From contig CAXGWU010000001.1 of the NCBI GenBank assembly GCA_964013565.1, positions 93,601 to 157,600 of the forward strand: a stretch of DNA of 64,000 nt. Reading direction: 5' to 3'. Source of the DNA: an uncultured Oligoflexia bacterium (GTDB taxonomy: Bacteria > Bdellovibrionota > UBA1018 > UBA6935). Position numbers and translations under genes: made by a program. Below are positions 4,456 to 34,768 of this stretch, in pieces; position 1 is the stretch's first letter, and each line of letters opens with the position of its first letter. The notes below the pieces were generated by a model, which saw only the letters and a list, made by a program, of their open reading frames with translations, did not search any database and was not told where the DNA came from.

Positions 4456-6119
4456 AAAGGTTAATTCTACTGGGGCTTTTAGTTTCTTCCTTTGTTTGGG
4501 CACAGCCCCAGCCTCATAATTTTAGTTTTTCACAAATAAAAAGAATTCCTATTCAAAATGGTGGGCGTTTAAAGCCTTTAGATTCATTTGCCAGAGAATG
4601 GGTTTTAGGAATTACAGGGTCTAGAACTTTTAAAGGTTTTGATTCGGTTGATTTAATTCTTTCATGGATTTCTTTTCCCAATGAATGGGAAAAAGAACCT
4701 TTTATCCGAATTAATCGTAAGGATGTAAAAAAACAACTTTTGTTGTCAGAAGACCGAAAATACTTCTCGCCACAAGAACTCACCCATAATGCGGCTTTTC
4801 TGCAGTATGCAGATCAGATTGCTAGTGAGATGGGAGGACAGGGAGTAAAAAAAGCTCAGGTGACAAAAACAGGAGTAAAAGAGGATGGTCGTCAGAGGGA
4901 ACTGAAGACGGTATTAGGAAGACTCACCTCTTTTCGTCGAGTGACTTCGGGGGAGGTGTGGACTCTCGTTCCAGATCCCCAAAAGTGGAAGTCAATTGCA
5001 GACTCCTCGTCCGCACCTGAAATTGAAAAAAGCTTTAAATCTCTTATTCGGGCCTACGTCGCTTCTGAGAAAGATGCTTTTAGTCAGGCAGCTGTTTTGT
5101 TGAAAGGGGCTGTCGAAGGAAAAATGAAAACTCAAGGTGCCGATATACAGACGGTTCAGTCTCGAGCAGGACTTGAAACGCTTAGCAATGAAATTCGCTT
5201 TTTTCAAAAAGCGTGGTCTTTGTATTTACTTGCAGGACTTTGTTTTTTGATGATGTGGGTAAGTCAAAGAAAGCGTTGGAAAGTTCTTGCGTGGGGCCTT
5301 GTTAGTTTAGGGTTTGTTTTTCATGTTTTAGGTTTTGGAATTCGAGTTTTTCTTACACAAAGAGCTCCTGTGACGAATATGTATGAGTCCATTGTTTGGG
5401 TAAGTTTCGGAGTGATGGTTTTTGCTTTTATTCTTTATCGACTTCAGAAGAAAAAGATTTTAATGACTACTGCTTGTTTTCTTTCTGCTTTAGCGTTGAT
5501 CGCTGCGGATGCCAATCCTACCATGTTAAATCCAGGACTGGATCCATTGGTTCCTGTTTTGAGAAGCAACTTTTGGCTTACCATTCATGTCCTGACCATT
5601 ACATTGGGGTACGCAGCATTTGCCCTGACTTATGGATTAGCAAATATTAATCTGTTTCATTTTTTAGCTGCAGCTTTGAAAGCTAAAAAAGAAAAGGTGA
5701 AACCTAAAGTTTCTCCTAAAATGGCTGATTTAAATCAACTGACCTATCGTGCGATGCAGTTTGGTGTGGTCTTACTCGCCGCAGGAACTATTTTGGGAGG
5801 AGTCTGGGCTGACTACTCCTGGGGAAGGTTTTGGGGATGGGACCCAAAAGAAGTGTGGGCTCTTATTGCTTTACTTTGCTACCTTGCTATTCTGCATGGT
5901 CGTTATGCGGGCTGGGTGAGACCTTTTGGCTTTGCTGCTTGGTCAGTGCTTGGGTTTACTTCAGTGGTAATGGCTTGGTATGGAGTGAACTTTGTGTTGG
6001 GAGTTGGACTTCACTCCTACGGGTTTGCGTCCGGTGGAATGGAGTGGGTGGCAACAGCTGTTTTGATACAAATTATTTTGGTTCTTCTTGTCTCTTTTTT
6101 TCATAAAAGAGCTTCTTAA
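4452..6119 (+). CDS. ccsA: cytochrome c biogenesis protein CcsA/ResC (system II heme handling)
   Basis: Trp-rich WWD motif WGRFWGWDPKEVWAL, multiple TM helices and conserved His residues. Carries a long N-terminal periplasmic extension. Confidence 0.9.
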   Translation: MKRLILLGLLVSSFVWAQPQPHNFSFSQIKRIPIQNGGRLKPLDSFAREWVLGITGSRTFKGFDSVDLILSWISFPNEWEKEPFIRINRKDVKKQLLLSEDRKYFSPQELTHNAAFLQYADQIASEMGGQGVKKAQVTKTGVKEDGRQRELKTVLGRLTSFRRVTSGEVWTLVPDPQKWKSIADSSSAPEIEKSFKSLIRAYVASEKDAFSQAAVLLKGAVEGKMKTQGADIQTVQSRAGLETLSNEIRFFQKAWSLYLLAGLCFLMMWVSQRKRWKVLAWGLVSLGFVFHVLGFGIRVFLTQRAPVTNMYESIVWVSFGVMVFAFILYRLQKKKILMTTACFLSALALIAADANPTMLNPGLDPLVPVLRSNFWLTIHVLTITLGYAAFALTYGLANINLFHFLAAALKAKKEKVKPKVSPKMADLNQLTYRAMQFGVVLLAAGTILGGVWADYSWGRFWGWDPKEVWALIALLCYLAILHGRYAGWVRPFGFAAWSVLGFTSVVMAWYGVNFVLGVGLHSYGFASGGMEWVATAVLIQIILVLLVSFFHKRAS

Positions 6120-8230
6120 GAGAGTTTAGATTTCATTTGTTCTAAAAAAGAAGACACCTTCTGTTCGTGTGCTTCTCGAAGAACTTGGCTTGAAAGATCA
6201 GGTGTAGATGAGACATCTTCTGTGAAAATTAAGTTTCCGGGTATTTCTGATAGGAATCGAGAAGGGTACCGAGGTACTGGTTTCCCGTATCGAATTCTAT
6301 TTTTTGCACGAGTCAGATAGAGTTTTTCTTTTGCACGAGTGATTCCAACGTAGCAAAGACGACGTTCTTCACTATAGTCTGTTGCTTCATCCATGACTCT
6401 TTGATGAGGAAGGTAACCATCCTCCATTCCCACTAAAAAGACAGTGGGGAATTCTAAGCCTTTTGAGCCATGTAAAGTCATGAGTGTCACTTCGTCTTTT
6501 TCCTTACTTTCCTCTTCTTCGCTTTCTTCTTCGGCATCAAGAGTCAATCGAGTGATGTATTCTCTTAAAAACATAAAGCTGTTTTCAGCAGGTTCTTCAA
6601 GTTTCATCTGTCCAAGGCCATGTGCGAGCTCTTGAACCATTTCCCATCGCTGAGATGCTTGTAGGGCATCATCAACGTCGTTTTCTATTCCAGTTCTCAT
6701 TCCTATCCATTCAAAAGTTTGCCTTGCCCAGTCCGCCATAGCCGTTGGTTCAGGCTCAATCTTTTCTAATGCGTTTCTCATCTTTTGGATAAGAGAAGCG
6801 AAGGTCATGACCGCTTGTTTGGGTTTAGTCTTTAAGTCTGCATCAGGAATTGACTCAAAAAAAGAACATTGGTTTTCTACTGAATGGCTATGAATGGTGT
6901 CGATGGTTTTTTTCCCGATTCCTCTTGCAGGCCAATTAATGATTCTTCGAAGTGCAGTTTCTTCATCTGGATTTAAAATCGTTTTCCAGTAACTGAGGGT
7001 ATCTTTGATTTCTTTTCGGTCTAGAAAAGAAAAAGATCCAACTAAACGATAAGGAATCCCTTTCATTCGGAGTGCTTCTTCGAAATGTCTACTTTGTGGA
7101 TTGGATCGAAATAGAATTGCAAAATCACTCCAGTTCATGAGTGTTTTGACTTCCCCTCCCTCGTGTTTTTTTGCGAGATCAAAAATTCGCTCGGCTACGG
7201 TAGTTGCTTCGTCATGATCATCTTCAGTTAAGATGAGTGTTATCGGAGGTCCATCTTCTTTTTGAGACCAAAGCGACTTAGGGTGCCTAACCGAATTATT
7301 TTGAATAACTTGATTTGCGGCATCTAAAATAGTTTGTGTGCTTCGATAATTTTGATCAAGAGTTACTGTTTTTGCTCCTGGGTAGTGTTTTCCAAAATTT
7401 AAAATGTGGGAAGGATCAGCCCCCCTCCAAGCATAAATAGATTGGTCATCGTCTCCCACCACGCAAATATTTTGTTGCTTTAGGGTAAGGAGTCGAATGA
7501 GTTCAAATTGGGCTTGATTGGTGTCTTGGTACTCATCAACAAGAATGTATTTAAATCGATCATTATAGGCGTCACAGACTTCAGGGTGTTTTTTTAATAA
7601 ATCAACAGCGTTGAATAATAAATCGTCAAAGTCCATCGCATTCATGGCCCGAAGTTGATCTTGATACTCCGGATAGGTGGTTGCCATTTCTAAAGCAATT
7701 GGAGAGGATGCCTCATTTCTAGCTGAATTCATAAAAAAAGCTTCAGATTGATGAGGGGGAATAAATCTGTTTTTTGCTTGTCCAATTCCAAACAAGATAA
7801 AAGAAGGATCGAACTTTTTATCATCCACACTATTTTTTCTTAGAATTTTTCTGATGATCTCAATTTGATCATTTTGATCTAAAATAGAAAATTGTGAAGT
7901 GTATCCTAAGCGACTCGCTTCTTGTCTTAAGATTTTAACGCAAAGACTATGAAAAGTAGAAACAGTTAGTCCTTGTGTTCTTTTTTGTGTGATTTTTCTC
8001 ACTTCTGAATAAACGCGGTCTCTGAGTTCTCCAGCAGCCTTATTTGTAAAGCTAAGTCCTAATATTTGGCGCGGAGAGACCTTCTTTTGAGTAATCAAAT
8101 GAATCATTCGATAGGTCATTGTGCTGGTCTTTCCACTCCCTGCTCCTGCTAGGACAAGAAGGGGACCTTCTTCGTGGAGAACGGCTTGGCGTTGATTTGG
8201 ATTGAGTTTTTTTAAGTACTTCGTTTGCAT
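6116..8230 (-). CDS. uvrD: UvrD/PcrA/Rep-family ATP-dependent DNA helicase
   Basis: Helicase SF1 motifs AGAGSGKT, DEYQDTN, QNYRS, LHGSKGLEF and VGITRAK. Confidence 0.9.
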   Translation of the reverse strand: MQTKYLKKLNPNQRQAVLHEEGPLLVLAGAGSGKTSTMTYRMIHLITQKKVSPRQILGLSFTNKAAGELRDRVYSEVRKITQKRTQGLTVSTFHSLCVKILRQEASRLGYTSQFSILDQNDQIEIIRKILRKNSVDDKKFDPSFILFGIGQAKNRFIPPHQSEAFFMNSARNEASSPIALEMATTYPEYQDQLRAMNAMDFDDLLFNAVDLLKKHPEVCDAYNDRFKYILVDEYQDTNQAQFELIRLLTLKQQNICVVGDDDQSIYAWRGADPSHILNFGKHYPGAKTVTLDQNYRSTQTILDAANQVIQNNSVRHPKSLWSQKEDGPPITLILTEDDHDEATTVAERIFDLAKKHEGGEVKTLMNWSDFAILFRSNPQSRHFEEALRMKGIPYRLVGSFSFLDRKEIKDTLSYWKTILNPDEETALRRIINWPARGIGKKTIDTIHSHSVENQCSFFESIPDADLKTKPKQAVMTFASLIQKMRNALEKIEPEPTAMADWARQTFEWIGMRTGIENDVDDALQASQRWEMVQELAHGLGQMKLEEPAENSFMFLREYITRLTLDAEEESEEEESKEKDEVTLMTLHGSKGLEFPTVFLVGMEDGYLPHQRVMDEATDYSEERRLCYVGITRAKEKLYLTRAKNRIRYGKPVPRYPSRFLSEIPGNLIFTEDVSSTPDLSSQVLREAHEQKVSSFLEQMKSKLS

Positions 8231-8310
8231 GGACGATCTTTACTTTAAGGATACGCGGTGCGCTAATCAATCAGAATTCCTTGATTTTATAAGAATCAAA
8301 AAGGAAAAGT

Positions 8311-9795
8311 TTATCGTTTACTGTTAAAAGACAAAAATACACGATTGCATTTTAAATTTTCCCAGCTTTTTTGGTGATCTTGATAAGATTTCACAAGGTT
8401 ATCCAGTATTCTGTTTTTGAAAGGAGCCTTTTCAGAGAAAATTCTTGTTACTTTTTTGCTTGTCATTGAAATTTTTTGAATCAATGTAAAAAGGGTTACC
8501 GAAGGCTGAACGTCTCTTAGAACAGTATTGAGAATGTTTTCAAATTCTTTAGAGGAGATTTTCTTGTTTTTTCGTGCTACGGCTGTTTGTTCAAGAACGA
8601 GAAGAGGGATCCAGCGGTTTTTATAGTTTTTTGAAATTCTATGATAGAATTCAAAAAATTTAGAAATATCTTGTTTTTTACTTTCTTTGTTGAATGGTTT
8701 GTAAAAATTAGCAATTTCAGAATTGATAGATTCAATGTTTATTTTTTCTTTTTCCATTTTTAAAAGTAAATCTTCTTCATAATTCTTTTTTGAGATTCTT
8801 TTTTTTGTCCTATTCTTGATTTTGAATTGGTAGCCTAGCGCTTGAGCTTTTTTTATGACTTCCGCTAAAAAAGAATCGCTTGTAACAAGTTCGTAAATCG
8901 CTTTTTGATATCTAAGGAGATTCATTCTTACATCCGAAGACTTGGGGCCGAGTGACTTGGCGTAGCTATGATTGTTTTTATCTGTTGTAATTTCTGCAAA
9001 GCTTTGATTCCACGCGCCTACATAATGTTCATATCCAACTTCAGCAAACTTTGTTGAGACTTGATCATAGTAGTGAAGAGGAACGATGTTTTTATGATAT
9101 TCTGTTTGATCTGCTTGTTCTAAATTTTTTAATGTAGTTTCTTGAATTTTTCTTTTTTCCTTTAGTTCATATATGGATTCTCGAAAGGTTGGGGCAACTA
9201 CGCCTATAAAATAAAGTCGAGAAATGATGTCTTTGAGGTTTCCCCCGGAGTTTTCGTAGAGTCGGTACATTGCAGCAAGACAAGCTCGTCCTTGTCGTCC
9301 ATTTCCTTTAGAAACGGTGTCTACGAGTATGAGAGGTCTACCATTCATTCCATTTTTTAAGTCAAACCCTTTGCTTTTAAAAAGGCTATAGATTTGTTCG
9401 TCTGTAGGGTTGAATTTTGGACTAAAATCAGGATCCATTCCAAAAGTTGCTTTACTCATCCCCACTCTAATTACTTTATTGGGTTCTCCGATGCTATTGA
9501 AAAACCCTTCAATAATATCTGAAAATATTAGACTATCTCGACCTAAGAAGCCAAAAACTGCGTCTGGATAGATAAAAGATAAATGAGCGATAAATCTTGG
9601 TGCCTCTTTTTCTATAAATTGAAACCAATCAGGAAAAGGATTGTTTCCAGGAATTTCTTTTAAAACAGATTCCACCTTCTTCATAGATGGTCTTACGTTT
9701 TGATTGATTAAATTATTAATATCTTGGTCTTTTTGAGTCCAAGATAACATAGGAGAAAATAAGATAAGTAAGGCAATATATATTTTTGTTTTCAT
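8311..9795 (-). CDS. exported hypothetical protein, GRD-family paralogue (PRTase-like motifs, tentative)
   Basis: Signal peptide MKTKIYIALLILFSPMLSW. FGFLGRDSLIFSDIIEGFF..GEPN..IRVG and GRPLILVDTVSKGNGRQG resemble the HGPRT-type VLKGGYKFFADLL and VLIVEDIIDTGKT loops. Full-length paralogue of 16931-18463. C-terminal KCNRVF motif. Confidence 0.45.
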   Translation of the reverse strand: MKTKIYIALLILFSPMLSWTQKDQDINNLINQNVRPSMKKVESVLKEIPGNNPFPDWFQFIEKEAPRFIAHLSFIYPDAVFGFLGRDSLIFSDIIEGFFNSIGEPNKVIRVGMSKATFGMDPDFSPKFNPTDEQIYSLFKSKGFDLKNGMNGRPLILVDTVSKGNGRQGRACLAAMYRLYENSGGNLKDIISRLYFIGVVAPTFRESIYELKEKRKIQETTLKNLEQADQTEYHKNIVPLHYYDQVSTKFAEVGYEHYVGAWNQSFAEITTDKNNHSYAKSLGPKSSDVRMNLLRYQKAIYELVTSDSFLAEVIKKAQALGYQFKIKNRTKKRISKKNYEEDLLLKMEKEKINIESINSEIANFYKPFNKESKKQDISKFFEFYHRISKNYKNRWIPLLVLEQTAVARKNKKISSKEFENILNTVLRDVQPSVTLFTLIQKISMTSKKVTRIFSEKAPFKNRILDNLVKSYQDHQKSWENLKCNRVFLSFNSKR

Positions 9796-9797
9796 TT

Positions 9798-11288
9798 CTA
9801 TTTTCCTCTCATGAGTGCAATTGCATCTTCTTCTGAATCAATAAGATGAATTCTTCTTTTTAACCATTCAGGGTAATGATCAGAGATTAAGTTTTTAAGT
9901 AACGGTTTATAGAATTCGCTATTTATAAAAGCTAATTGAGAGCGCTTATTTGGATTTCCAGAAAAATCAACAAAAGTTGTTGCTAGTTCTTTCATCGTTC
10001 CATTGCCTCCAGGTCCTACAAAAATAAGGTCTTTGTCGTGCAGTAAAAAAGGAATTCGTGTTTCATAATCCATTGATTCAATGACAAATCTTTTATTGCT
10101 AAAAGAATAAGATTTCCCAATGATAATATCGATGGCAGTTCCTCCATTATCAATGCTTGCATTTGCTGCGGCTTCCATGAGGCCACCCCCCCCACCGCTT
10201 GATAAGATATATTTATTTTTTGCAGAAACTTTAGCTACGAGTTGAACTAGTTGTCTCCAGCGATAGTCAAACGAACTAGACCCAAAAAAAACCGCTTTTT
10301 TATGATCTTTCAAACTTTCAGAAATATAATCTATATCTTCAATTCCAGCTAAGTAATTAGAGATGATTAATTTAAAACTATAATCAAATTGATGACTAAA
10401 CTTTTCTTCGTTGAAAGGAATAATGCTTTTATATCTATTGGGACCCGGAGTAATAAAACTTAAGTCATTTTTAATTTTTAAGTATGAAGACTTAAATTTT
10501 CCTAATGCTTTGAAATTTAAAAAGTCTGAATCCCATTCATTTTTATAGTTAATGAGGAAATCTAGTTTATCGATTAAATGAAGAGCTAAGGCTGTAACAG
10601 AACGAGTATCACCTACTGACTTTCCTATAGAAAAAGCTTTAAGTCTTAAGTAAGGATTTTCAATTGCAATGATGTTTTCATTTAAATTTTCTTTATTTGG
10701 GTCCGCAGTAATGCCTACTCCAAGTTTCCCTAATGTTTTTTGTATATCTTTCGCTGATATTGAATCTGCATCGTAGAAAAATATTTGAGAAAAATTAGAT
10801 AGTGTTTTTTTGAGTGAATTGAGATCGACTGTGGTTGGGTAATCGGTGGTTCCAAAAAGAAGAGTGTATGGATTCATATTGGAAAACGAATCTAACCACT
10901 TAAATCTCATAAGATCTGAAAGAAATGATTTTGATTGATCTTTTCTATCTAATTTAAAAATTTCCTCTATTGATAATTCTTGAGGTTTACTACTTTTTGA
11001 TGGAAGTTTTCTATTCTTGTTTTCGTAATGACTATTGGAATAACCTTTATAAGAATATGGGCTGTCTGTATCTAGACTTGTAACTGGAGATTGATAATCA
11101 AATTGGTATGTGTTGTTAACAGCAATCTCACTTATATCAGGAACTTCATCAATTTTAGGTGGTTTGATTCCGTGAATTCCAAAAACTAAAGCGCATTGAG
11201 AAGAAAATAAATGGTCCAAATTAGAAGTAGCGTTGGATGTTAATGTATAGATGATACCTACTATAGATATCAAAAAAAGATTTTTCAT
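9798..11288 (-). CDS. exported tandem LOG/TIGR00730-like protein (degenerate N-repeat plus intact C-repeat)
   Basis: Signal peptide MKNLFLISIVGIIYTLTS. The C-terminal domain carries both LOG signatures, SSGGGGGLMEAAANAS and VGPGGNGTMKELAT. Paralogue of 15189-16880 (YETRIPFLLHDK / YETRIPLLLHEK). The single Cys lies in an N-terminal CALVF. Confidence 0.65.
   Translation of the reverse strand: MKNLFLISIVGIIYTLTSNATSNLDHLFSSQCALVFGIHGIKPPKIDEVPDISEIAVNNTYQFDYQSPVTSLDTDSPYSYKGYSNSHYENKNRKLPSKSSKPQELSIEEIFKLDRKDQSKSFLSDLMRFKWLDSFSNMNPYTLLFGTTDYPTTVDLNSLKKTLSNFSQIFFYDADSISAKDIQKTLGKLGVGITADPNKENLNENIIAIENPYLRLKAFSIGKSVGDTRSVTALALHLIDKLDFLINYKNEWDSDFLNFKALGKFKSSYLKIKNDLSFITPGPNRYKSIIPFNEEKFSHQFDYSFKLIISNYLAGIEDIDYISESLKDHKKAVFFGSSSFDYRWRQLVQLVAKVSAKNKYILSSGGGGGLMEAAANASIDNGGTAIDIIIGKSYSFSNKRFVIESMDYETRIPFLLHDKDLIFVGPGGNGTMKELATTFVDFSGNPNKRSQLAFINSEFYKPLLKNLISDHYPEWLKRRIHLIDSEEDAIALMRGK
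10186..10193 (-). repeat. G8 homopolymer (C8 on the plus strand) inside the LOG GGGxG motif codons
   Basis: Direct read: ggccaccccccccaccgc. On the coding strand this is ggt ggg ggg ggt ggc, encoding GGGGG. Confidence 0.95.
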
Positions 11289-13237
11289 TTTATGTCCCCA
11301 ATAAAATTTTTCTCACATTTTTCCTCAATATCTCCATTAATTACTTCTTTTATAAATGTTTTTTTTATGTGAAGAGATTGAGCCCATTTATTTCCGAGTT
11401 CATCTAAATAGAGGAGTCTAGTTTCGGTATCTGTGGTTGTCGGAATGAGATGACCGTAGTACCAAAGGCTCCACGTTCCATTGTGAAAATATAAACTATC
11501 TGGAGTTAAACCGTGAATATATAGATTTAAATGAACTAGATGATCAAAAAAATCCGCAAGTGCTGTCCATGCAATTGTTTCATGAATTGGAACCGCTGCT
11601 TTATTTGAAAGCTCTCTTAAAGAAACTCCTTGTGGTTCATCTATCGCAACAAAATAAAGACTGTTTCTTATCTTAGAAACAATAATTCTATTCTCTTGTA
11701 GGTGCAATAGCTCATAGTATGAAGGTGTTCCTGGGTCAAACCTAAAGATCACTTGTTTTAAATTTTTTTCTTTTTGAATGATTTCATATTTTTTCAATTC
11801 TCCAATGTTCACTTTTTTTGGCGAAGAATTAATAAAAGGAGGCTCTTTTTTTATGTCATTATTTTCATAATTTAATTCATTACTTTTTTTTCGTCTTTTC
11901 TTTTTGGGACCTTTTGAATGATTTTGGAAGTTTTGTTTATCTAGTAATTCTTTCCAAAATAAATCAATTTCTTTTTTTTTGCTTTTAAGTTCTTCTCTTA
12001 ACCATTTTGTTTTTAGTTTGTTTGAGTATTCATTTAGAGTTCTATGTTTGCTGAAAAAAGTTCTAATTGGTCCGCTATCAACTATTTGCCATTCTTTTCC
12101 ATCAAAAATAAGATTGTCAGGGTTTAATCCGGAGACATAAATGTATTTTTCAGAAGCTTTAATGAAAAATTTTTCTAGTGCTAATTTTTTTGGGTTATTT
12201 TTTGTGTCTAAAATTTTTTCATCGAGAATCGCTTCTCTTAATCGAGTTCCTTCAATGAAATTCATAAGTAGAGACTTTTTATCTGTACTCCATTTCACAT
12301 TAACTGAAGACAGACCGTTTTTTCTCCATTCTTCTGATAGCTCTATCTGTTTTTTGAAACTTTTTTGAATATCCGCACTATCGTTTACTGGAACTTTCCA
12401 AGCCCATAGTTCTCCATTTGAGTCCTTTAACTGATGAACTCTACCTGTTTTTCCAACGCCTACGGCTTCTTTTTCTAATGAGTAACCTTCCGGAATATCG
12501 ACCTCTTTAACTGAGTTAATGAGAGCTAATAATTTTTCCCAGTTTTTTTCTTCAATCAAATCTTTGGCATTTTGTAAGAACTTTCTCCTTTGGCTAACTT
12601 CGGTAATGGTATTGGCTTTTTTTAGAACTTGAAAATGAATTGGTTCGAGATCAATTTTTGGGAAAACATACCGACTCAATCGCCTGAGAGTTTTTGTGTT
12701 TGCTCGGCTTGTGATAATCCAAATTAATTCAAAATCATCTCTATAAGAGGATAGAGGAAGGATATGTTTTGTAAAAGATTCTAATTCATCTAATGGTATG
12801 ATCGCTGCTGTATAACGAAGAGAAGGAAGTAAATTTTTTTCATTACTTTGAGTGAATAGTTTAAAGAGTGTAGAAAAGTTATAAATTTTTTTGTCGCTTA
12901 AAATGCCAATTAGAACATTGTTATTGTTTTTTCCTTTTTCTGAATGCAAATATTGATTAATAATGATGTCTCTTAGACAGAAACTTTCTGTCGCTAGTTT
13001 AATATAAAATTTATCAGGTGGGTTGTTTTGTGATTTAATGATTTCATCAATGATAGCTATATTCATCGCTTTATATTCATTGCTTTTCGCCAAAGATAGT
13101 TTTTTTATAACCTGAGAAATCGCCTCCCACTGTTGATTTTCGATTAGTTTTTTGAGTCGATGTGGAACCACGGTTTGAGCATGTGCTGGTATGATAAAAA
13201 ACAGACAAGCTAAATATAAGAAAATTTGTTTTTTCAT
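11285..13237 (-). CDS. exported protein with two atypical protein-kinase-like modules
   Basis: Signal peptide ending AHA-Q. Module 1: GVGKTGRV (G-loop), WAWKV, LLMNFIEG (hinge), GLNPDNLIF, IVDSG. Module 2: FVAIDEPQGVSL, IHGLTPDSLYF. Lys-rich linker KGPKKKRRKK. C-terminal KCEKNF. Confidence 0.45.
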   Translation of the reverse strand: MKKQIFLYLACLFFIIPAHAQTVVPHRLKKLIENQQWEAISQVIKKLSLAKSNEYKAMNIAIIDEIIKSQNNPPDKFYIKLATESFCLRDIIINQYLHSEKGKNNNNVLIGILSDKKIYNFSTLFKLFTQSNEKNLLPSLRYTAAIIPLDELESFTKHILPLSSYRDDFELIWIITSRANTKTLRRLSRYVFPKIDLEPIHFQVLKKANTITEVSQRRKFLQNAKDLIEEKNWEKLLALINSVKEVDIPEGYSLEKEAVGVGKTGRVHQLKDSNGELWAWKVPVNDSADIQKSFKKQIELSEEWRKNGLSSVNVKWSTDKKSLLMNFIEGTRLREAILDEKILDTKNNPKKLALEKFFIKASEKYIYVSGLNPDNLIFDGKEWQIVDSGPIRTFFSKHRTLNEYSNKLKTKWLREELKSKKKEIDLFWKELLDKQNFQNHSKGPKKKRRKKSNELNYENNDIKKEPPFINSSPKKVNIGELKKYEIIQKEKNLKQVIFRFDPGTPSYYELLHLQENRIIVSKIRNSLYFVAIDEPQGVSLRELSNKAAVPIHETIAWTALADFFDHLVHLNLYIHGLTPDSLYFHNGTWSLWYYGHLIPTTTDTETRLLYLDELGNKWAQSLHIKKTFIKEVINGDIEEKCEKNFIGDIK

Positions 13238-15192
13238 TTTTTAAGGTTTCCAGGTGTTCCAAATAGGATTTGACATGTCGAAGTACTGTTAGAACTAAAG
13301 CTCTTATTTTTACGACTGTCATGATAAAAGAACTCTTTTAAAAAATTCATATCTGAAAGCATTTCAGTTTGAGTTTTGTCTGTAAAAAAATAAGTATAAA
13401 ATCCTTTATTGAGACGTGGAGTGTAGTCTACATTAACAATTTGCTCAGCGTTATCGACCTGAAAATTTGCGGCTTTGAAGTCTAACCAAATGTTTTGTTC
13501 TGCTGCAATTTTTTTTGCGATAAGCCATTGTTCCAATACCTGGTTTTTTATTTTTTTCGGTATTTCTTCAATTGGATTTTGAGAATATTTTGCTTCTAAG
13601 TTTTTTCCGTCAAAGTAAGTTTGTTCTACAATTACCCCTGTTGGATGTGCATAAAGTATTTTTGCATGCCTAAAATTTGGATAATTTTTTAGAATTCTAT
13701 CTTGTGTCCATTTTTGCAAAAGAGATTTACGTGCATTTTTTGGGTTTTTTGTAATTTTAATAACTCTATTTTTATCACTTAAAAATACTTGTACATTTCT
13801 ACCTTCTCCTAGATATCCTTTTAACTTATAGAGGACTGCATTATTAGAGGTTAGAACCATTGGGTAATTTGGATCATCGCTTTTTTTGATTTCCAGAGAT
13901 GAAAAAAAGTCATTTGCTCCCTCTAATGGTTCCAGATATTGCCAATCTTTCATAGCACTGAAGCCTTTTTGATGGACTTCAGATATTTCCTGAAATAAGA
14001 GTTCGTTTTTGTTTAAGTCTTTTTTGTTTTTTCTTATTTTTTCTTGATTTTTAGTGGTCTTCTTTTTTACTGGAATAATTGTTTCAGCAAGTCGTAGATC
14101 AGATACTAGTCCAAGGAGTGATATAACTTTTTGAGATAGTTTTATAGGTTTGTCACTATAAATATGAAGTGACGGTTTTGTTTTAAATTTTAGTCCTGTT
14201 TGTATAAACTTATGACGATGCTCTAGTAGATTGTGAACATGATCAGCATCCCAGTGATTAATTGCTCCTGGAATAGCGATTTGAAATCGTTGAATAGAAA
14301 AAAAATAATCAGTTTCGGTGAGTTTTTTAATAGTCTCTGAAGAGAGTTCTTCGTTGTTCCTGGTGTAATTGTTGATAATATCTTTAAAAGAAGAGTTTCC
14401 ATCTACTCTTTTTGATCTCAAATATCTGAAATCTACAAGTTTCAGGAATTGAGTTGCTTCAGATTTATTTAGGTTTTCACAAATGGCTCTTAAAATTGCT
14501 CTGGGAATTTTTCCAGACATACTTGAATCCATAAATACTAAGCCATTTTTTAATAATCTCTCTTTTGTTAGTCCGATGGAATTTAATAAATGGTAAATTT
14601 CAGAAGTTTGATGGTTGAAGATTAAGTCTCTTATTTTCCTTGATACATTAAGGGTGTAAAGAAAATTTTTATCTATAGATTTTTTTAAAGAGATAAAAAG
14701 ATATGGAGCCGTAAAGTCTCTTCCTATAAAAAATAAATTTTTATTATTAAAATCTCTTTTGATTTCATTTTCTATTTGAGCGATTACAGGAATGATGACT
14801 TCTGTTTCGTATTCTTGAGTGTAACGAATAAGTTGATCTGTTATTTTTTTAGAATCAATTGAATCTAAAGAAACAACACCGATTTTTTTGTCTAATTCAA
14901 GAGCACTATTTTTAAGTTTTGAGCGTTTATTTGACCAATGAAAAAAGAGTTCATTGAAAAACTGAGTTTTTTCTTGAGTCGTTAGAGTTTTAACTTCTTC
15001 TAAAATTAAATAGATGTCATTACGAATTGACTCTAAAATATCGGTTTGAATCCATTTTTTAAGAAATTCATCGTAGCTATTAGAGTTTTGGGCTTGAAGA
15101 GCTGATTCATAGTGATTTTCTATTACATCGCTGGAAAATACATTAGTCTCAGTAAAGCAAAATAATAGAATAAATAAAATTAATTTATTCAT
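13234..15192 (-). CDS. exported fusion of a GRD-family (PRTase-like) N-domain and an ePK-like kinase C-domain
   Basis: Signal peptide MNKLILFILLFCF. N-half: LFFIGRDFTAPYLFISL and GLVFMDSSMSGKIPR. C-half: LGEGRNVQVF (GxGxxxxV), VIKITK (VAIK-like), VIVEQTYFDG (hinge), WLDFKAANFQV (DxKxxN), NVDY (DFG-like). C-terminal TCQILF. Confidence 0.55.
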   Translation of the reverse strand: MNKLILFILLFCFTETNVFSSDVIENHYESALQAQNSNSYDEFLKKWIQTDILESIRNDIYLILEEVKTLTTQEKTQFFNELFFHWSNKRSKLKNSALELDKKIGVVSLDSIDSKKITDQLIRYTQEYETEVIIPVIAQIENEIKRDFNNKNLFFIGRDFTAPYLFISLKKSIDKNFLYTLNVSRKIRDLIFNHQTSEIYHLLNSIGLTKERLLKNGLVFMDSSMSGKIPRAILRAICENLNKSEATQFLKLVDFRYLRSKRVDGNSSFKDIINNYTRNNEELSSETIKKLTETDYFFSIQRFQIAIPGAINHWDADHVHNLLEHRHKFIQTGLKFKTKPSLHIYSDKPIKLSQKVISLLGLVSDLRLAETIIPVKKKTTKNQEKIRKNKKDLNKNELLFQEISEVHQKGFSAMKDWQYLEPLEGANDFFSSLEIKKSDDPNYPMVLTSNNAVLYKLKGYLGEGRNVQVFLSDKNRVIKITKNPKNARKSLLQKWTQDRILKNYPNFRHAKILYAHPTGVIVEQTYFDGKNLEAKYSQNPIEEIPKKIKNQVLEQWLIAKKIAAEQNIWLDFKAANFQVDNAEQIVNVDYTPRLNKGFYTYFFTDKTQTEMLSDMNFLKEFFYHDSRKNKSFSSNSTSTCQILFGTPGNLKK

Positions 15193-16880
15193 CTTTTATT
15201 CCTCTTTTTATTAAAGAAATAAATTTCTTCATCTAAAAGGCCAAAGCTGAAGAGGGTCTCTATAGTGATTTTTAATTCAAAATCGTTTTTGACAAAATGA
15301 ATTCTATCTTTAATGAATTGCGGAATTGATGAGCTGTCGATTTGATTTTTTAAGCCACTGTAATAGTCATCACCCACAAAAATGATCTCTAATTTTTCTT
15401 TTGGGTTTTCTAGAAGTTTTAGAATCGTTATCCAAAATTCTTTCATGGTTCCAGAGCCTCCTGGAACAAAAACAACAAGTTGTTTTTCGTGAAGAAGGAG
15501 AGGGATTCGGGTTTCATATCCACTACTCGAAACGGTAAGAGAATGATGTTCTTTTTCTACTTTTTTTTCTGTTTTTAGAGTGTGTTTACCCGTGATAGGG
15601 ATCCCAACTGATGGAACATGAGATGATATTGCTGCAGTATTTGAAGTTTTCATGGCACCGCCAGCTCCGCCAGTCGTGATGCTAATATCAAGAGATCCTA
15701 AGGCGAGACCAGATTTGAAAATAAGGTTCTCAAAAGGATTCTCATCCCTTCCCGTTCCAAAAACTGCAGCTCCTCTTACTCCTGTTAAATCTTCTTGTCC
15801 GATTAGAAGTTCAGTAACTTCTTTGACGATATGATCAATTTGATAATCAGAAAGGTCTGAAAGAGTTATTTTTTTTGGTTTAAATTGTTTTGTAATTATT
15901 GGGAAAATTTCTGTCTCAACGTGAGGAGAGGTACGAATAGGCTCTCCTGCAAGGTCAAATTCTTGATTAAAGTAACTTTTACTGTAGATAGGAGATGAAG
16001 GGATTTTTTTAATCGCTGTAGTAACGGTTGTAGCTTGATCAAAAATAGGTATTTCTTTAGTTCGAACTCCCATGTTTATGTTCATAAGATCTAAGTCTTG
16101 TTTCCATTGATGAAGAGAAAAGTTCCATTCTTTTTTTGGATCAAAAATAATGTCTATTTCATTATTGAATAATCCCGCAAATCCAGTTGTGGAGTCAGGA
16201 GTTGTAATTATTTTTTCCGAGGTGTTAAATAAAGCCTGTGCTCTTAAGTAGGTGTTTTTAATGTAAACTTGGCCTCTTTGTTTTGTTGGTTGATTAGAGA
16301 TACCAAAAGATGATTTTTGAGCTAGAGATTGAATTAGTTTAGCGTAAGGACTATTTGATTCGTAGAGGATAAAATATCCACGAGAAATAAATTGAGAAAC
16401 TAATTCGGTCAATTCAGTTTGCATTTGAGGATCAGGCTGTGTTCCAGAAGTCCCTGCAAGAATCGTCACTGTTTGTTTTGAATTTAGTTTTTTTAATCTT
16501 TCTAGGTTGAGGTGATCTTGAATGTACTGACCTTCAGTAGTTAATAATACCAATTCAAGTGCTTTTAGGTTTTTTTCTCTGTTTGTTTTTTTTAGACGTT
16601 GAATCTCTGAAGTTATTTGAGCTATTTGCTTTTTTACCGATTGATTTTCTTTTTTTCCAGAATTACTAAAAATTTTTTTTAGTAATCCTCTTTGTTTTTT
16701 AGAAATTTTTTTAGTATTTAAAGACGTTAATTTTTTTTCTAATTCTTTAATCCGTTCTGACTCCTGATTTAGACTAGTTAGTCGTTCTAATGTGGATAGA
16801 CGACTTAAAAAATTTTCTTCACATCCGGCTAAAGAGAAGTGATGGGCAATTAAAGTTAAAATAATAATAAGTTTTTTCAC
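15189..16880 (-). CDS. exported (lipobox) coiled-coil plus tandem LOG/TIGR00730-like protein
   Basis: MKKLIIILTLIAHHFSLAGC (lipobox LAGC, then CEENF). Lys/Glu-rich coiled coil. Degenerate first repeat (TILAGTSG..ITTPDSTTGFAG). Intact second repeat with TTGGAGGAMK and VPGGSGTMKEF. Confidence 0.65.
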   Translation of the reverse strand: MKKLIIILTLIAHHFSLAGCEENFLSRLSTLERLTSLNQESERIKELEKKLTSLNTKKISKKQRGLLKKIFSNSGKKENQSVKKQIAQITSEIQRLKKTNREKNLKALELVLLTTEGQYIQDHLNLERLKKLNSKQTVTILAGTSGTQPDPQMQTELTELVSQFISRGYFILYESNSPYAKLIQSLAQKSSFGISNQPTKQRGQVYIKNTYLRAQALFNTSEKIITTPDSTTGFAGLFNNEIDIIFDPKKEWNFSLHQWKQDLDLMNINMGVRTKEIPIFDQATTVTTAIKKIPSSPIYSKSYFNQEFDLAGEPIRTSPHVETEIFPIITKQFKPKKITLSDLSDYQIDHIVKEVTELLIGQEDLTGVRGAAVFGTGRDENPFENLIFKSGLALGSLDISITTGGAGGAMKTSNTAAISSHVPSVGIPITGKHTLKTEKKVEKEHHSLTVSSSGYETRIPLLLHEKQLVVFVPGGSGTMKEFWITILKLLENPKEKLEIIFVGDDYYSGLKNQIDSSSIPQFIKDRIHFVKNDFELKITIETLFSFGLLDEEIYFFNKKRNKR

Positions 16881-16930
16881 CGTTTATTTAGTCCTTTTTT
16901 AAAAGTAAGATTTGCTTTTTTTAAAATGAT

Positions 16931-18463
16931 TTATTTTTTATCTATTTGTGTAAAAATTCGATTACATCCAGTTTTTGTAAGATAATCTGAGATGGTTTTA
17001 GTGTGTTCCGAAATTTTCCCTCCAAATTTGTCGGAGTTTTTAAATTCATCTTCTCTTTTTTCAAACATAGATCTGAATTTTTCATCGTTTTCATAAAGCT
17101 CCCGAATAGCTTTTAGTTGATCGTCAGAAAGAGAAGGAGTGTTGCCTAGGACATAACGATAAAGTCGTTTATAATCTCTTCCTTTAATTTTCTGAGAAGC
17201 TCTTGCTCTAGTGATAGCCTGCATAAATGGGACAATGATTTTGTCTTTAAAATCTGTATTTTGAAATTGCTTTAACCATTGAAGGTAGTGATTTCCGTTG
17301 TTTGAGAGTTTGTTTGTGATTTCTCCGGGTTCATTTAAAGATTGTTCTATTTCAAAAAGGTTTTTTAGATGTTCTTTAAGTTGTTCTTGTTTTTTCTCTT
17401 CTTGAAGAGCTAATTCTTTTTTTCTTTGTTTTTTTCTTTCATTGATTTGTTGTGACGTTAGTGATTGATAAAGTTTTGAATTTCCATCTAAATCAATTTT
17501 ATAGAGTTTTAGATATTCATCTAATTTGTCTTTAAATTCATTAGATTTAATGAGTTCGATAATTATATAAATTTCTTGTAAAACAGTTTTTTTTGAAATA
17601 TTCGAAAATTGCACGCCAGAAATTGGAATAAGTTTTTCGTTTATTTCTTTAAAACCTAGCCATGAATCATGCCACTCTGAAGTCCTATGATTTATCCTAA
17701 AAAAAGTTCCATAACTTGTGCTTAATCGTGGAACCGGTACGCCGTCTATATGAGATAGTGATGATACGTTTTCGAAAAAGTTTTCCTGATCAAAGTCTTC
17801 GTTGATAGTATGTTTTAGGTTGTTGTCGCTAATATTAACAAACGCAATTTTTCCAAGAAGATCTTTTGGGTCTTTTCCTAGATTTTTGTAGGTTTCATAG
17901 AGATATCTCATCGTTAGCCTGGATTGGCTTGCTTCTCCTCCTCCTCCTCCACTGGTATAAGTTGGGCTATAGCTACTAAAATCATAGAGAACCCAAGGGG
18001 CACTTTCTGTAATGGTATCGAAGTTAATGCCTAGAGACTGAGCATATCGAACAATGGTTTCTGAGGAAGAGTTTTTAAAACTTGGAGTACTTGCGTTGAA
18101 TCTTCCTGCGCGATTAGGCTCACCTCTCAGATAGTAAAACGCTTCCAGGGCTAGACTATTTTGGATGACATCTCTTCCAAGAGAAAAATATCTTCCTCCA
18201 GGAAAGGCTTTTTCAAAACTTACAATCATTCTGGCGATATTGTTTATAGCATTAGGGTAAGCATTAGCGATAAACTCTTGATTAAGCATTTTTTCATGAC
18301 TCGGCCATGGGTTGAGTACAGTGAGCATTTCTTCGATTGTGGGAACTGTTTTTTTTTGTACTAACTCATCAATTTGATTTTCTAATTGTGTTTGATCAGA
18401 AAAAGCAAAAGAAATGAAAAGAAAGTGGAGGCTAAAAAAAATAGATTTATTTATGAGTTTCAT
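16931..18463 (-). CDS. exported hypothetical protein, GRD-family paralogue (PRTase-like motifs, tentative)
   Basis: Start taken at internal Met MKLINKSIFFSLHFLFISFAF (signal peptide). This removes the overlap with the upstream gene. YFSLGRDVIQNSLALEAFYYLRGEPN and WVLYDFSSYSPTYTSGGGGGE. Single Cys in the C-terminal GCNRIF. Confidence 0.45.
   Translation of the reverse strand: MKLINKSIFFSLHFLFISFAFSDQTQLENQIDELVQKKTVPTIEEMLTVLNPWPSHEKMLNQEFIANAYPNAINNIARMIVSFEKAFPGGRYFSLGRDVIQNSLALEAFYYLRGEPNRAGRFNASTPSFKNSSSETIVRYAQSLGINFDTITESAPWVLYDFSSYSPTYTSGGGGGEASQSRLTMRYLYETYKNLGKDPKDLLGKIAFVNISDNNLKHTINEDFDQENFFENVSSLSHIDGVPVPRLSTSYGTFFRINHRTSEWHDSWLGFKEINEKLIPISGVQFSNISKKTVLQEIYIIIELIKSNEFKDKLDEYLKLYKIDLDGNSKLYQSLTSQQINERKKQRKKELALQEEKKQEQLKEHLKNLFEIEQSLNEPGEITNKLSNNGNHYLQWLKQFQNTDFKDKIIVPFMQAITRARASQKIKGRDYKRLYRYVLGNTPSLSDDQLKAIRELYENDEKFRSMFEKREDEFKNSDKFGGKISEHTKTISDYLTKTGCNRIFTQIDKK
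17936..17950 (-). repeat. (TCC)5 trinucleotide repeat, i.e. (GGA)5 on the coding strand, encoding GGGGG
   Basis: Direct read: tcctcctcctcctcc within gcttctcctcctcctcctccactgg. Confidence 0.95.
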
Positions 18464-18464
18464 T

Positions 18465-19850
18465 TTATTTAATCTTTCTGCGTATAAATAACGTTTTACA
18501 AAGTGGAGTCTTTTTTTCTCCTGAAAATACAGACTGTAAAGTTTCCGAAATTTCAAAACCTAAATTTAAAACTGATATATCTGGCTGAGTAATGTTAAAT
18601 GAATTCGTCACAACCATGAGATCAATGTCTGGCGAGTCAATTGCTTTTTGAGCGTTTCCTGCAAGATGGCTAACAACACCAAATATCTTATTTGCACCAT
18701 GCTTTTTAAGAAACTCTGCTGACTCGGCAAGTGTTCCTCCAGAGGCAGTTTCGTCATCAACAATCGCTACAGTATGCCCTTTTACAGAGTCTCCACTAAT
18801 CCCGAGAATACGAGTCTCTCCAGTGAGAGGATTTCTTTTCTTATTGATAATTGCGAGGGGTAGGTGAAGTTCTTCTGCATATAAAGTAGCATCTTTTTGA
18901 AAACCAGCGTCAGGAGAAACGATAATAGAAACTCCCAGTTTCTTGAGTTCTTTATTGATTGTTTCTCTTCCGTTGATTTCAAAAACAGGGATAGAAAAAA
19001 AACCTACACTCTGAGGTGCATGCGGTCTTACAATTGTTATTGTTTTTACTCCTAGTCCCTCAATGAGGTCAGCAGTGAGTCTTCCTGTTACAGTAATTCC
19101 AAATTGATCTATCTTATCTGATCGAGCATAAGGAAGGTAGGGAGAGATCAGGTGAACTTGTTGCCACTTTGATTGAGTGCTATATATTTTATGTAAAGTA
19201 TCAAAAAATGATTTGTTTATTGGAGACTCAAGAGAAGATACATAAAATATATTGTATCCAGAGAGCTTTTTATTGTTGGGGTTCCATTCAGATTCTTGAA
19301 TGACTGGGATATTGAGTTGTTTTGATAAGGTGTCTCTCAATGAAGGGTTTGTGTCTCCTACAATTGCAAACTTTTTTTTAAAATTTTTTGTTTTTGTTTG
19401 ATATTCTGGAAAGTCATAATCTTGGTTTGCAATACGGTAAGATTCCGCCCCCGAAATTTTGAAAAGTTTTAATACAAAAGTTGAAGGTAAGGATTCAGAT
19501 TCAAAATGAACGGATATTGATAAGGCACCCATTGTTTTAGCGGTGCGAACTTTAATGAGAGCTTCCATAAGAAGGTCATCATGATCTTCAATGTTGTTTG
19601 GAATATACAGAGTTAGTTTCTGATTGATAGGATTTTTTAAAAATCGAACAAAAGTATTTCCGTTGCTAAACTCCGTTGTTTTTGTCGGAAGAATTTTACT
19701 TTCAATAGTTTCAGAATACGATTGAGTCTTTGCCTCATATCCACGAATTCCAACAAGCCATGGCTTTTTAGAAGCGATACAAACATTTGAAAAGCTAAAG
19801 CTTAAAAGAAATAAAAGTCCAAATTGTATTTTTTTTTGTGCCCCACCCAT
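18465..19850 (-). CDS. ribose-phosphate pyrophosphokinase (PRPP synthetase) homologue with signal peptide and an extra degenerate N-half
   Basis: Prs motifs LISPYLPYARSDK, SPDAGF, the flexible loop KKRNPLTGETRILGISGDSVKGH, the PRPP loop VAIVDDETASGGTL, and VVTNS. The N-terminus MGGAQKKIQFGLLFLLSFSFSNVCIA looks like a signal peptide. Residues ~50-150 repeat the Prs N-half (FSNGNTFVRF..DDLLMEALIKV). C-terminal LCKTLF. Confidence 0.7.
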   Translation of the reverse strand: MGGAQKKIQFGLLFLLSFSFSNVCIASKKPWLVGIRGYEAKTQSYSETIESKILPTKTTEFSNGNTFVRFLKNPINQKLTLYIPNNIEDHDDLLMEALIKVRTAKTMGALSISVHFESESLPSTFVLKLFKISGAESYRIANQDYDFPEYQTKTKNFKKKFAIVGDTNPSLRDTLSKQLNIPVIQESEWNPNNKKLSGYNIFYVSSLESPINKSFFDTLHKIYSTQSKWQQVHLISPYLPYARSDKIDQFGITVTGRLTADLIEGLGVKTITIVRPHAPQSVGFFSIPVFEINGRETINKELKKLGVSIIVSPDAGFQKDATLYAEELHLPLAIINKKRNPLTGETRILGISGDSVKGHTVAIVDDETASGGTLAESAEFLKKHGANKIFGVVSHLAGNAQKAIDSPDIDLMVVTNSFNITQPDISVLNLGFEISETLQSVFSGEKKTPLCKTLFIRRKIK

Positions 19851-20214
19851 TAATACTTTTGATCCTTTCTTATGTGTTTCTAGGAGTCCTTAGAATTCGA
19901 ATTGCAATGTGTCAATCTGTATGGTTAAAAAAATTATAAGAAGAATTTGCTTTTTATAATTAAAACCAACTTAGATTGTTGTTTATGAATAGATTGATTT
20001 AATGAGATTTCTTTATAGATAACCGGTTATTTGATTTTAAAATCGGTTTGTTAATGCCTATTTTGTTGTTTAGAAGAATCCAATGATAAATTAATGCATA
20101 TTGCTAATCTAAATGGATGGAAGTTCTACAGTTTAATGAATAAAGACGAAGGATCTAAAGTTTATGAATGTGTCTGCCTTGTTCTAAATGAGGATCATGC
20201 TAGAGTACCATGCG

Positions 20215-34735: not shown

Positions 34736-34768
34736 AGCGAAGAAGATTTTCATCTCTTCGCTTTTTTT
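34736..34768. terminator. bidirectional rho-independent terminator between actF and the convergent gene
   Basis: A-run, then stem gcgaaga(a)ga / tctcttcgc (9 bp, one bulge) with loop ttttca, then a T7 run at 34762-34768. Reads as a hairpin plus U-tract on both strands. Confidence 0.8.

Follow-up and report, generated by a model that had tools for sequence, protein, structure and literature searches.

Putatively exported proteins with a predicted tandem LOG-fold architecture in an operon of an uncultured Oligoflexia bacterium

The genes g2 and g5 lie in a 64,000-nucleotide stretch of contig CAXGWU010000001.1 (assembly GCA_964013565.1, positions 93,601 to 157,600 of the forward strand; hereafter the window) from an uncultured marine Oligoflexia bacterium of predatory type. 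Both encode putatively exported proteins in which a degenerate domain of the predicted LOG fold precedes a LOG domain with intact catalytic motifs. On balance, we regard it as fairly likely that g2 and g5 are Sec-exported two-domain enzymes derived from a tandem duplication of a LOG unit, with a live C-terminal copy and a dead N-terminal copy serving as its pseudo-dimer partner, and that they belong to an operon of exported nucleotide enzymes. The architecture appears to be new, and constitutes a rare, lineage-restricted, exported branch of the known LOG family within an uncharacterised conserved operon. The searchable literature contained no description of tandem LOG-LOG proteins; a survey of SLOG proteins published in 2015 (Burroughs et al., NAR) may mention them.

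Domain architecture of g2 and g5

Both open reading frames (ORFs) were found on the minus strand at the positions listed in Table 1, where an earlier reading of the DNA letters (the sequence-only reading) had placed them. It had also described the two proteins as paralogues, and in a BLASTP comparison residues 98-486 of g2 aligned with residues 98-533 of g5, that is, over almost the whole length (23% identity, E 1e-28). The same reading had assigned intact LOG motifs to the C-terminal ~180 residues and had seen the same order of elements, with degenerate motifs, in the upstream segment. The motif positions and the predicted structure agree with this division, and every motif string it quoted was located; the strings are collinear, and their spacing is similar in the N-half and the C-half. 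In the N-half of g5, these are TILAGTSG (residues 139-146), ILYESNSPYAKL (171-182), YLRAQALF (within 208-218) and ITTPDSTTGFAG (225-236); their counterparts in the C-half are AVFGTGR (372-378), ITTGGAGGAMK (401-411), YETRIPLLLH (455-464) and VPGGSGTMKE (472-481). In g2, the N-half carries LLFGTTD (143-149) and NPYLRLKAF (within 210-219), and the intact motifs of the C-half are LSSGGGGGLME (362-372), YETRIPFLLH (408-417) and GPGGNGTMKE (425-434).

The two halves were compared at the profile level with hhalign, using a 72-sequence alignment of each domain and 200 column-shuffled controls as the null. The N-half aligned with the C-half over 129 collinear columns (P 0.014, probability 3%), in the register of the motif pairing given by the sequence-only reading. 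The β1 segment VtLLxGn was paired with GaVxFGSs, YDADSxxA with TGGxGGxM, GIS with GIP, NPYLRm with gYExRIP, and vIxxPDSxxG with aPGGxGTmkE. Cross-matches between the N- and C-domain hidden Markov models (HMMs) were faint (E 0.17 in the homologue P0073 and E 0.076 in P0011). Only the C-half was recognised by known families; the N-half had no match in Pfam or NCBIfam in scans of the full proteins, nor among PDB sequences when searched with the N-half profile.

The AlphaFold2 (AF2) model of full-length g5, built from a 74-sequence alignment, had a mean predicted local distance difference test score (pLDDT) of 89 and a predicted template modelling score (pTM) of 0.85. It consists of two successive units, residues ~113-293 and ~343-555, each formed by a helix and a β-α-β Rossmannoid core. 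The extra helix opening each unit spans residues 117-130 in the N-half and 345-364 in the C-half. Because the pTM of the full-length model is high, the two domains of g5 appear to be held in a fixed mutual arrangement. The region between the signal peptide and the N-domain, two long helices in the model, probably forms a helical hairpin or a coiled coil.

Residues 113-293 of g5 were also modelled separately, with a pLDDT of 96.3 and a pTM of 0.90; the input alignment of this model misplaced only the first three and the last five query residues. In a Foldseek search with the N-domain model, all 50 matches listed were SLOG proteins, the best of them type-II LOGs with TM scores of 0.67-0.70 and E-values down to 7e-6. 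The sequence-only reading would have fallen if the N-half had shown no structural similarity to the LOG/SLOG Rossmann fold; the confident prediction and these matches place the N-half within that fold. In the structural comparison of the N-domain, DprA stood at 11.4 and the first non-SLOG Rossmannoid protein, a heptosyltransferase, at 10.9. More distant structural neighbours included sensor SLOGs, namely those of ThsA and TRPM and the Moco carrier protein. Moreover, the same three type-II LOG structures were the best structural matches of both the N-half and the C-half. The repeat of the LOG/SLOG fold in the N-half is thus clear at the level of predicted structure and marginal at the level of sequence.

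Catalytic status of the two domains

The phosphate-binding motif and the catalytic Arg and Glu of LOG enzymes have been defined in CgLOG and CgLOGII (PMC4979012, PMC5379747). The C-domain, with its predicted LOG Rossmannoid fold, retains this set in both proteins: PGGSGTMKE (473-481) and Arg458 in g5, PGGNGTMKE (426-434) and Arg411 in g2. Across 74 homologues, T403, G404, G405, G408 and M410, Y455 and R458, and P473, G474, G475, G477, T478 and E481 (g5 numbering) are invariant or nearly so. Against Pfam, the C-half of g5 scored 33.1 bits with PF03641 (cut-off 27) and 29.4 bits with PF18306 (cut-off 26.3); g2 passed PF18306 with 32.5 bits and remained just under the cut-off of PF03641 with 25.3. 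A phmmer comparison of the C-half with LOG structures in the PDB gave E 2e-8.

An extra N-terminal α1 helix is the hallmark of type-II LOGs in the classification of Seo & Kim (PMC5379747), and in the model such a helix precedes the Rossmann core in the C-domain as well as in the N-domain. A second type-II feature, the Asp beside the catalytic Glu (xDE), is absent; the family consensus is GTmKE, with Lys instead. We must also note that Lys precedes the catalytic Glu throughout the family (window positions 15438-15467 for VPGGSGTMKE of g5). The residue before the catalytic Glu contacts adenine and is Asp in type-II LOGs (Asp177) and Glu in type-I LOGs (PMC5379747). Since the same position contacts the base in both types, the Lys hints at a different base preference.

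The N-domain, with its predicted LOG/SLOG fold, lacks GGGxxG, PGGxGTxxE and the catalytic Glu. The segments in question read YESNSPYA in g5 and YDADSISA in g2 for the first motif, and TPDSTTGFA and DTRSVTALA, respectively, for the second. Only the Arg is kept (R213 within NTYLR of g5; NPYLR in the family). Because both Gly-rich loops and the Glu have been lost, the N-domain is very unlikely to perform LOG chemistry. It nevertheless appears to be clearly functional and under strong purifying selection, and not simply decaying, because the Arg is kept and the domain has strongly conserved residues of its own; conservation across the family reaches 90% or more, up to invariance, at G143, D174, N209 and S230.

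Family and distribution

A profile built from the two N-halves was run exhaustively with HMMER against 1.84 billion representatives (E ≤ 0.001) and returned 82 representative proteins, whereas k-mer-indexed homologue searches found only one to three relatives. The 81 sequences analysed comprise these matches, less three redundant ones identical to window proteins, together with g2 and g5. The N-domain (~140 residues) was present in all 81 and was accompanied by a C-terminal LOG domain in 77, the other four being short fragments. The LOG domain begins ~85-100 residues downstream of the N-domain, occasionally up to ~280. Among the 1.84 billion representatives, the N-domain profile matched no protein outside this architecture and no LOG proteins, so the N-domain is family-specific and not detectably LOG-like by HMM.

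The family forms tiny clusters of one to three members, found in metagenomes only, and the genomes that could be placed taxonomically were exclusively Oligoflexia metagenome-assembled genomes (MAGs) and a Bdellovibrionaceae MAG (Oligoflexia/Bdellovibrionota). A Tara Oceans entry named 'MAG: hypothetical protein [Bdellovibrionaceae bacterium]' is 100% identical to the g2 protein. Two N-type domains occur in P0011 (946 residues, L009 10001-12841) and in P0021 (1153 residues); in P0011 the whole N+C module has apparently been duplicated, with a degenerate first C-copy, the one that matched the C-domain HMM faintly.

Export and lipid anchoring

Signal peptides were called with a heuristic hydrophobicity scan, and lipoboxes with the pattern [LVI][ASTVI][GAS]C. 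All seven proteins of the g1-g7 run described below have a basic n-region at the start and a hydrophobic segment directly behind it, which in g6 holds for the product starting at Met32. Among the 76 long family members, 60 passed the strict hydrophobicity criterion, and most of the others had weaker signal-like segments or were apparently truncated at the N-terminus.

In g5 the signal peptide ends in a lipobox-like LAG/C, the sole lipobox context among the 52 family members with a Cys at that position. Lipoprotein anchoring was considered as a family trait and rejected on this count. Of the sequence-only reading, the tandem LOG fold and the degenerate first copy are borne out by the models and the Foldseek matches. 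Its further statement that both proteins are secreted or lipid-anchored is supported as regards export, given the predicted Sec-type signal peptides of g2, g5 and most family members; a lipid anchor is doubtful even for g5 because only one of the 52 Cys-bearing members has a lipobox context. Export had also been called unusual for a cytoplasmic family. It is less unprecedented than that, as BP1253, a type-II LOG of Bordetella pertussis, was described as putatively exported or periplasmic (PMC6864091).

Operon and related loci

The genes g2 and g5 belong to a minus-strand run of seven ORFs, g1-g7 (Table 1), flanked by a pcrA/uvrD-like helicase gene (6116-8230) and by divergent thyA/folA-like genes from 20188. 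Overlaps of 4 nt join g5 to g4, g4 to g3 and g3 to g2, and a gap of 2 nt separates g2 from g1. As stops and starts overlap or nearly abut, the run suggests a single, translationally coupled operon. This context of exported nucleotide enzymes did not figure in the sequence-only reading.

Table 1. Positions in the window of the g1-g7 genes, of the domains of g5 and g2, and of further ORFs with a terminal Cys tag
Feature	Position	Strand	Description
g7	18465-19850	-	461 aa; exported, ribose-phosphate diphosphokinase (Prs)-like; signal peptide; C-terminal tag CKTLF
g6	16931-18556 (probable start 18463)	-	510 aa from the probable start; exported, no assigned family; tag CNRIF
g5	15189-16880	-	563 aa, GTG start; exported; degenerate LOG-fold N-domain followed by intact LOG C-domain
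g5 signal peptide, aa 1-20	16821-16880	-	Ends in lipobox-like LAG/C; Cys20 is the sole Cys of the protein and belongs to tag CEENF (sequence, hydrophobicity scan, Cys census)
g5 helical region, aa ~21-112	16545-16820	-	Two long helices, H20-66 and H74-112 (DSSP on AF2 model)
g5 N-domain, aa 113-293	16002-16544	-	Predicted LOG-type SLOG fold with type-II-like α1 helix; degenerate motifs, Arg213 kept
g5 inter-domain linker, aa 294-342	15855-16001	-	Mostly low confidence or disordered; pLDDT ~50-58 per 10-residue block over aa 291-330, <50 at 294-305 and 319-324
g5 C-domain, aa 343-555	15216-15854	-	Intact type-II-like LOG: TGGAGGAM 403-410, Arg458, PGGSGTMKE 473-481 (Glu481)
g4	13234-15192	-	652 aa; exported; C-terminal tag CQILF
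g3	11285-13237	-	650 aa; exported; C-terminal tag CEKNF
g2	9798-11288	-	496 aa, ATG start; g5 paralogue of the same architecture; signal peptide, single Cys32 in tag CALVF
g2 N-domain, approx. aa 118-290	10419-10937	-	Boundaries by homology to g5; LLFGTTD, FFYDADSISAK, ENPYLRLKAF; N-domain HMM aa 122-257, E 1.4e-55
g2 C-domain, approx. aa 305-495	9804-10376	-	Intact LOG: SGGGGGLM, YETRIPFLLH (Arg411), GPGGNGTMKE (Glu434); C-domain HMM aa 330-495, E 1.5e-78
g1	8311-9795	-	494 aa; exported; g1/g6 family; C-terminal tag CNRVF
Tagged ORF	496-1368	+	CPTHF; signal peptide, single Cys
Tagged ORF	34767-35621	-	CRYQF; signal peptide, single Cys
Tagged ORF	35618-36532	-	CESEF; signal peptide, single Cys
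Tagged ORF	58484-59092	-	CNELF; signal peptide, single Cys

The product of g7 matched TIGR01251 with 180 bits and Prs structures in the PDB with E 6e-29, and its YARSDK segment and the ribose-phosphate loop VDDETASGGT are intact. It carries an N-terminal extension of ~150 residues besides its signal peptide. A location outside the cytoplasm would be strange for a Prs, since the enzyme depends on ATP.

Related loci were found from an alignment of four sequences. An extended-type Prs-like gene adjoins a tandem-LOG gene, or lies near one, in the window and at four loci of different organisms (the P0003 contig, L005/L006, L007 and L010). Most loci hold two tandem-LOG genes, and genes of the g1/g6 family are interleaved with them in L002, L003, L005 and L007. 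L005/L006 contains an exported RelA_SpoT-family protein (34.9 bits; 315 residues, L005 15204-16151), and L007 an exported PI3_PI4_kinase-family protein (35.1 bits; 672 residues, 17599-19617). What recurs across these loci is exported enzymes that would form or cleave phosphoribosyl and pyrophosphoryl bonds of nucleotides. L005 also encodes a 302-residue protein with weak HipA-like and PI3/PI4-kinase similarity.

As for the other members of the run, g1 and g6 are paralogues (E 7e-14). The probable start of g6 corresponds to Met32 of the listed ORF and matches the public annotation of P0083 (510 residues). Profile searches of the g1/g6 family gave no Pfam or PDB sequence match. Proteins of this family, ~500 residues long, share the conserved elements RPT, AFLGRD, P-hydrophobic-hydrophobic-hydrophobic-D-x-T/S-S, SQSR and WH. 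A resemblance to HGPRT motifs raised the possibility that they are divergent phosphoribosyltransferases; a comparison by hhalign with an E. coli Hpt sequence returned a probability of 0.4%, and the assignment was rejected for lack of support. No homologues of g3 or g4 were detected, and no family was matched by either protein in Pfam, including scans of sub-regions, or in NCBIfam, and g3 had no PDB match either. The N-terminus of g4 could not be assigned to the g1/g6 family (domain E 0.055 even with filters off). Strings resembling protein-kinase catalytic loops were seen by eye in g3 and g4 (LNPDNLIF...IVDSG; WLDFKAANF...NVDY); Pfam scans of the sub-regions were empty and lent this likeness no support.

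The operon region has a G+C content of ~31-34%, compared with 36-42% in its flanks, and forms a low-GC stretch at window positions 8000-20000. A second such stretch (0.31) at 50000-52000 coincides with a 906-residue ORF (50016-52736, minus strand).

A possible terminal cysteine tag

A C-x-x-x-F sequence occurs near one terminus of each of the g1-g7 proteins, and its Cys is usually the only one of the mature protein. The tag lies directly after the signal peptide in g2 and g5, and 6-14 residues from the C-terminus in g7, g6, g4, g3 and g1. A Cys of this type was present at residues 15-70 in 52 of 76 family members, and in 39 of these 52 it was the sole downstream Cys. Related operons show the same arrangement, but the fifth residue varies by genome: C-x-x-x-Y in seven proteins of L005, C-x-x-x-M or L in seven of L007, and C-x-x-x-L in four of L002. 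The tag was not found in the operons of L003 and L001.

Of the 49 window ORFs of at least 150 residues, 11 carried the tag, all of them with signal peptides; the other 38 lacked it. Four of the 11 lie outside the operon (Table 1), and none of these four had a Pfam match. The tag resembles a proteome-wide mark carried by some of the exported proteins of this MAG, and it may serve disulfide-mediated assembly or sorting. The searchable literature contained no description of a Cys tag of this kind.

Proposed mechanism and alternatives

In LOG enzymes, the active-site pocket arises by dimerisation through α5 and α6, and residues of the neighbouring subunit line it (PMC4979012). The obligate assembly of a LOG is a dimer or a trimer of dimers, and α1 joins the interface in type II (PMC4979012, PMC5379747). 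Because dimerisation creates the pocket, the simplest reading of a fused dead and live pair, and a plausible one, would be a dimer formed within the chain and having one active site. The architecture of g2 and g5 would go back to an ancient tandem duplication in which a type-II-like LOG unit, comprising the α1 helix and the Rossmannoid core, was copied. The C-copy, with all catalytic elements kept (GGxGGxM, the Arg and the Glu of PGGxGTxxE), would most likely hydrolyse the N-glycosidic bond of nucleoside 5'-monophosphates (NMPs) to the free base and ribose 5-phosphate (R5P). The N-copy, with its conserved YDADS, NPYLR and PDSxxG, would supply the partner surface that the second subunit provides in a LOG dimer, giving a covalent pseudo-dimer in which only one active site works, and might additionally bind a regulatory or substrate-related ligand. 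Coupled to LOG, which would convert an NMP to base and R5P, Prs would use R5P and adenosine triphosphate (ATP) to form phosphoribosyl pyrophosphate (PRPP) and adenosine monophosphate (AMP), so that the net reaction would be ATP + H2O → adenine + PRPP. The family chemistry and the predatory lineage suggest extracytoplasmic processing or destruction of nucleotides, for instance those of prey, as the most likely role.

Several points weigh against this picture. The similarity between the N- and C-halves is not significant by sequence alone, as eight of the 200 shuffled controls reached the hhalign score, and both folds are predictions, not solved structures. The C-domain scores 28-29 bits with TIGR00730 (cut-off 96.35), and 40 bits (g2) and 12 bits (g5) with TIGR00725 (cut-off 106.9); because these values are far under the cut-offs, it represents a divergent branch outside both curated subfamilies. 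A ligand-binding or catalytic pocket would account for the conserved polar residues of the N-domain no less well than a role as a passive stand-in for a dimer partner. With respect to the coupled cycle, the ATP on which Prs and RelA/SpoT enzymes depend is normally absent from the periplasm, and L001, L002, L003, L008 and L009 have no Prs neighbour.

It is possible, although we consider it doubtful, that the N-domain serves mainly as a ligand sensor of the SLOG type, exerting allosteric control over the C-terminal LOG, and not as a structural substitute for the second LOG subunit, although the two functions would be compatible. Nucleotide-derived molecules such as PRPP, R5P, an alarmone or a molecule resembling ADP-ribose (ADPR) would be candidate ligands. 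ThsA and TRPM channels, through their SLOG domains, offer precedents for sensing. The near-invariant polar residues D174, N209, R213 and S230 occupy the topological positions of LOG nucleotide-binding motifs, and the Prs-like and RelA_SpoT operon partners make phosphoribosyl or pyrophosphorylated nucleotides. However, the closest structural matches of the N-domain are LOG enzymes and not sensor SLOGs, no ligand can be inferred from its sequence, and the high full-length pTM suggests a rigid domain pair that would fit a structural role equally well.

The origin of the two halves can be read in a second way, namely as a fusion of two distinct SLOG lineages in which an uncharacterised non-catalytic SLOG came to lie upstream of a LOG. 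We judge this unlikely, and keep it as a minority alternative because the sequence signal between the halves is near-absent: N/C similarity is at noise level, and the N-domain profile matches nothing outside the family, LOGs included. We prefer the view that a type-II-like LOG unit was duplicated internally long ago, since both halves share the same three best structural matches and an α1-type helix, their elements are collinear in order and spacing, the N-type domain never occurs without the C-terminal LOG (short fragments aside), and faint HMM cross-matches link the halves in P0073 and P0011.

We would assign a similarly low likelihood to a more elaborate scheme, in which the tandem LOGs are part of an exported 'nucleotide-demolition' toolkit of predatory or host-associated Oligoflexia/Bdellovibrionota that joins the chemistry to sensing by the N-domain and to assembly or sorting through the Cys tag. 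Here, a secreted Prs-like pyrophosphokinase (in some genomes also a RelA/SpoT-like one) would use ATP and release AMP. The LOG pseudo-dimer would split AMP into adenine and R5P, and R5P would return to Prs; the net conversion of ATP to adenine and PRPP would drain the adenylate pool of the prey. The dead N-terminal LOG domain would sense PRPP, R5P or an alarmone. The parts would be assembled or sorted by means of the terminal C-x-x-x-hydrophobic tag, whose last residue is common to the exported proteins within each genome.

Improbable, too, is an N-domain that is itself active through a remodelled site, where Asp, Asn, Arg and Ser would take the roles of the Gly loops and the Glu; the protein would then be bifunctional. 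The strongly conserved polar set and the retained LOG catalytic Arg would suit such a site, but no acidic residue stands at the position of the catalytic Glu and both Gly-rich phosphate-binding loops are gone; we know of no precedent for a remodelling of this sort. Finally, a chance likeness between short motifs, in a protein of low GC and biased composition whose N-half has an unrelated fold, would account for the marginal sequence statistics and for the lack of family or PDB sequence matches of the N-half, but the motifs are conserved across at least 72 diverged homologues and the structure predictions already make chance very unlikely, so that we give this explanation almost no weight.

If g2 and g5 are indeed covalent pseudo-dimers, they would be natural fusions of a dead and a live LOG, in effect a one-active-site version of an enzyme that is otherwise an obligate dimer or hexamer, and would show how a redundant catalytic site is repurposed into a structural or regulatory module. 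Should the exported enzymes act on nucleotides of prey or host, they would point to an unrecognised mechanism of predation or an effector mechanism. The Cys tag, should it prove real, would represent a new signal for the sorting or assembly of exported proteins. Taken by itself, the enzyme architecture is of moderate interest, to which the varying Cys tag and the conserved context of exported Prs, LOG, RelA-SpoT and kinase genes add.

Comparison with known systems

The Cys tag resembles the lipobox and the MYXO-CTERM/myxosortase tags (PMC11980579) in being short, in having an invariant Cys and in marking many exported proteins of one lineage. Unlike those signals, it reads C-x-x-x-hydrophobic with no transmembrane helix after it, and it is located either directly behind the signal peptide or 5-15 residues before the C-terminal end, with no lipobox ahead of it except in g5. 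In addition, its fifth residue differs between genomes.

Among sensor or non-catalytic SLOGs (the Moco carrier protein, the SLOG domain of ThsA, MHR1/2 of TRPM, and DprA), none has the motif set YDADS, NPYLR and PDSxxG of the N-domain. The N-domain is closer to true LOGs and is always fused to a LOG with intact catalytic motifs.

E. coli PpnN (YgdH) is likewise a LOG-fold enzyme within a larger multi-domain protein, and it cleaves NMPs to the base and R5P. PpnN is regulated by (p)ppGpp, and the PDB entry 9hs3, its 'pppGpp form', was among the Foldseek matches listed for the N-domain. However, the domains flanking the LOG unit of PpnN are not LOG copies, the enzyme is cytoplasmic, and the C-domain matches the PpnN model NF038390 only weakly (15.8 bits against a cut-off of 450).

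Bordetella pertussis BP1253 (BpLOG) is a LOG-family phosphoribohydrolase predicted, as are g2 and g5, to reside outside the cytoplasm; it makes no classical cytokinins and prefers GMP (PMC6864091). It differs in being a homodimer with a single LOG domain, and has neither the tandem degenerate domain nor the Cys tag nor an operon context with Prs and g1/g6 genes.

Among the closest known enzymes are the type-II LOGs, represented by CgLOGII (Cg1261, 5WQ3), TtLOGII (1WEK) and Neisseria YgdH (9US2), which have the α1 helix, GGxGGxM, the Arg and the Glu of PGGxGTxxE in common with the proteins described here. Known type-II LOGs are single-domain proteins of ~200-260 residues that form homohexamers or homodimers, whereas g2 and g5 contain two LOG units per chain, the first of them catalytically degenerate. 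Moreover, g2 and g5 have a signal peptide, to which g5 adds the putative helical hairpin of ~90 residues. The residue next to the catalytic Glu is Lys in the tandem proteins (GTMKE), as against Asp in type-II and Glu in type-I LOGs.

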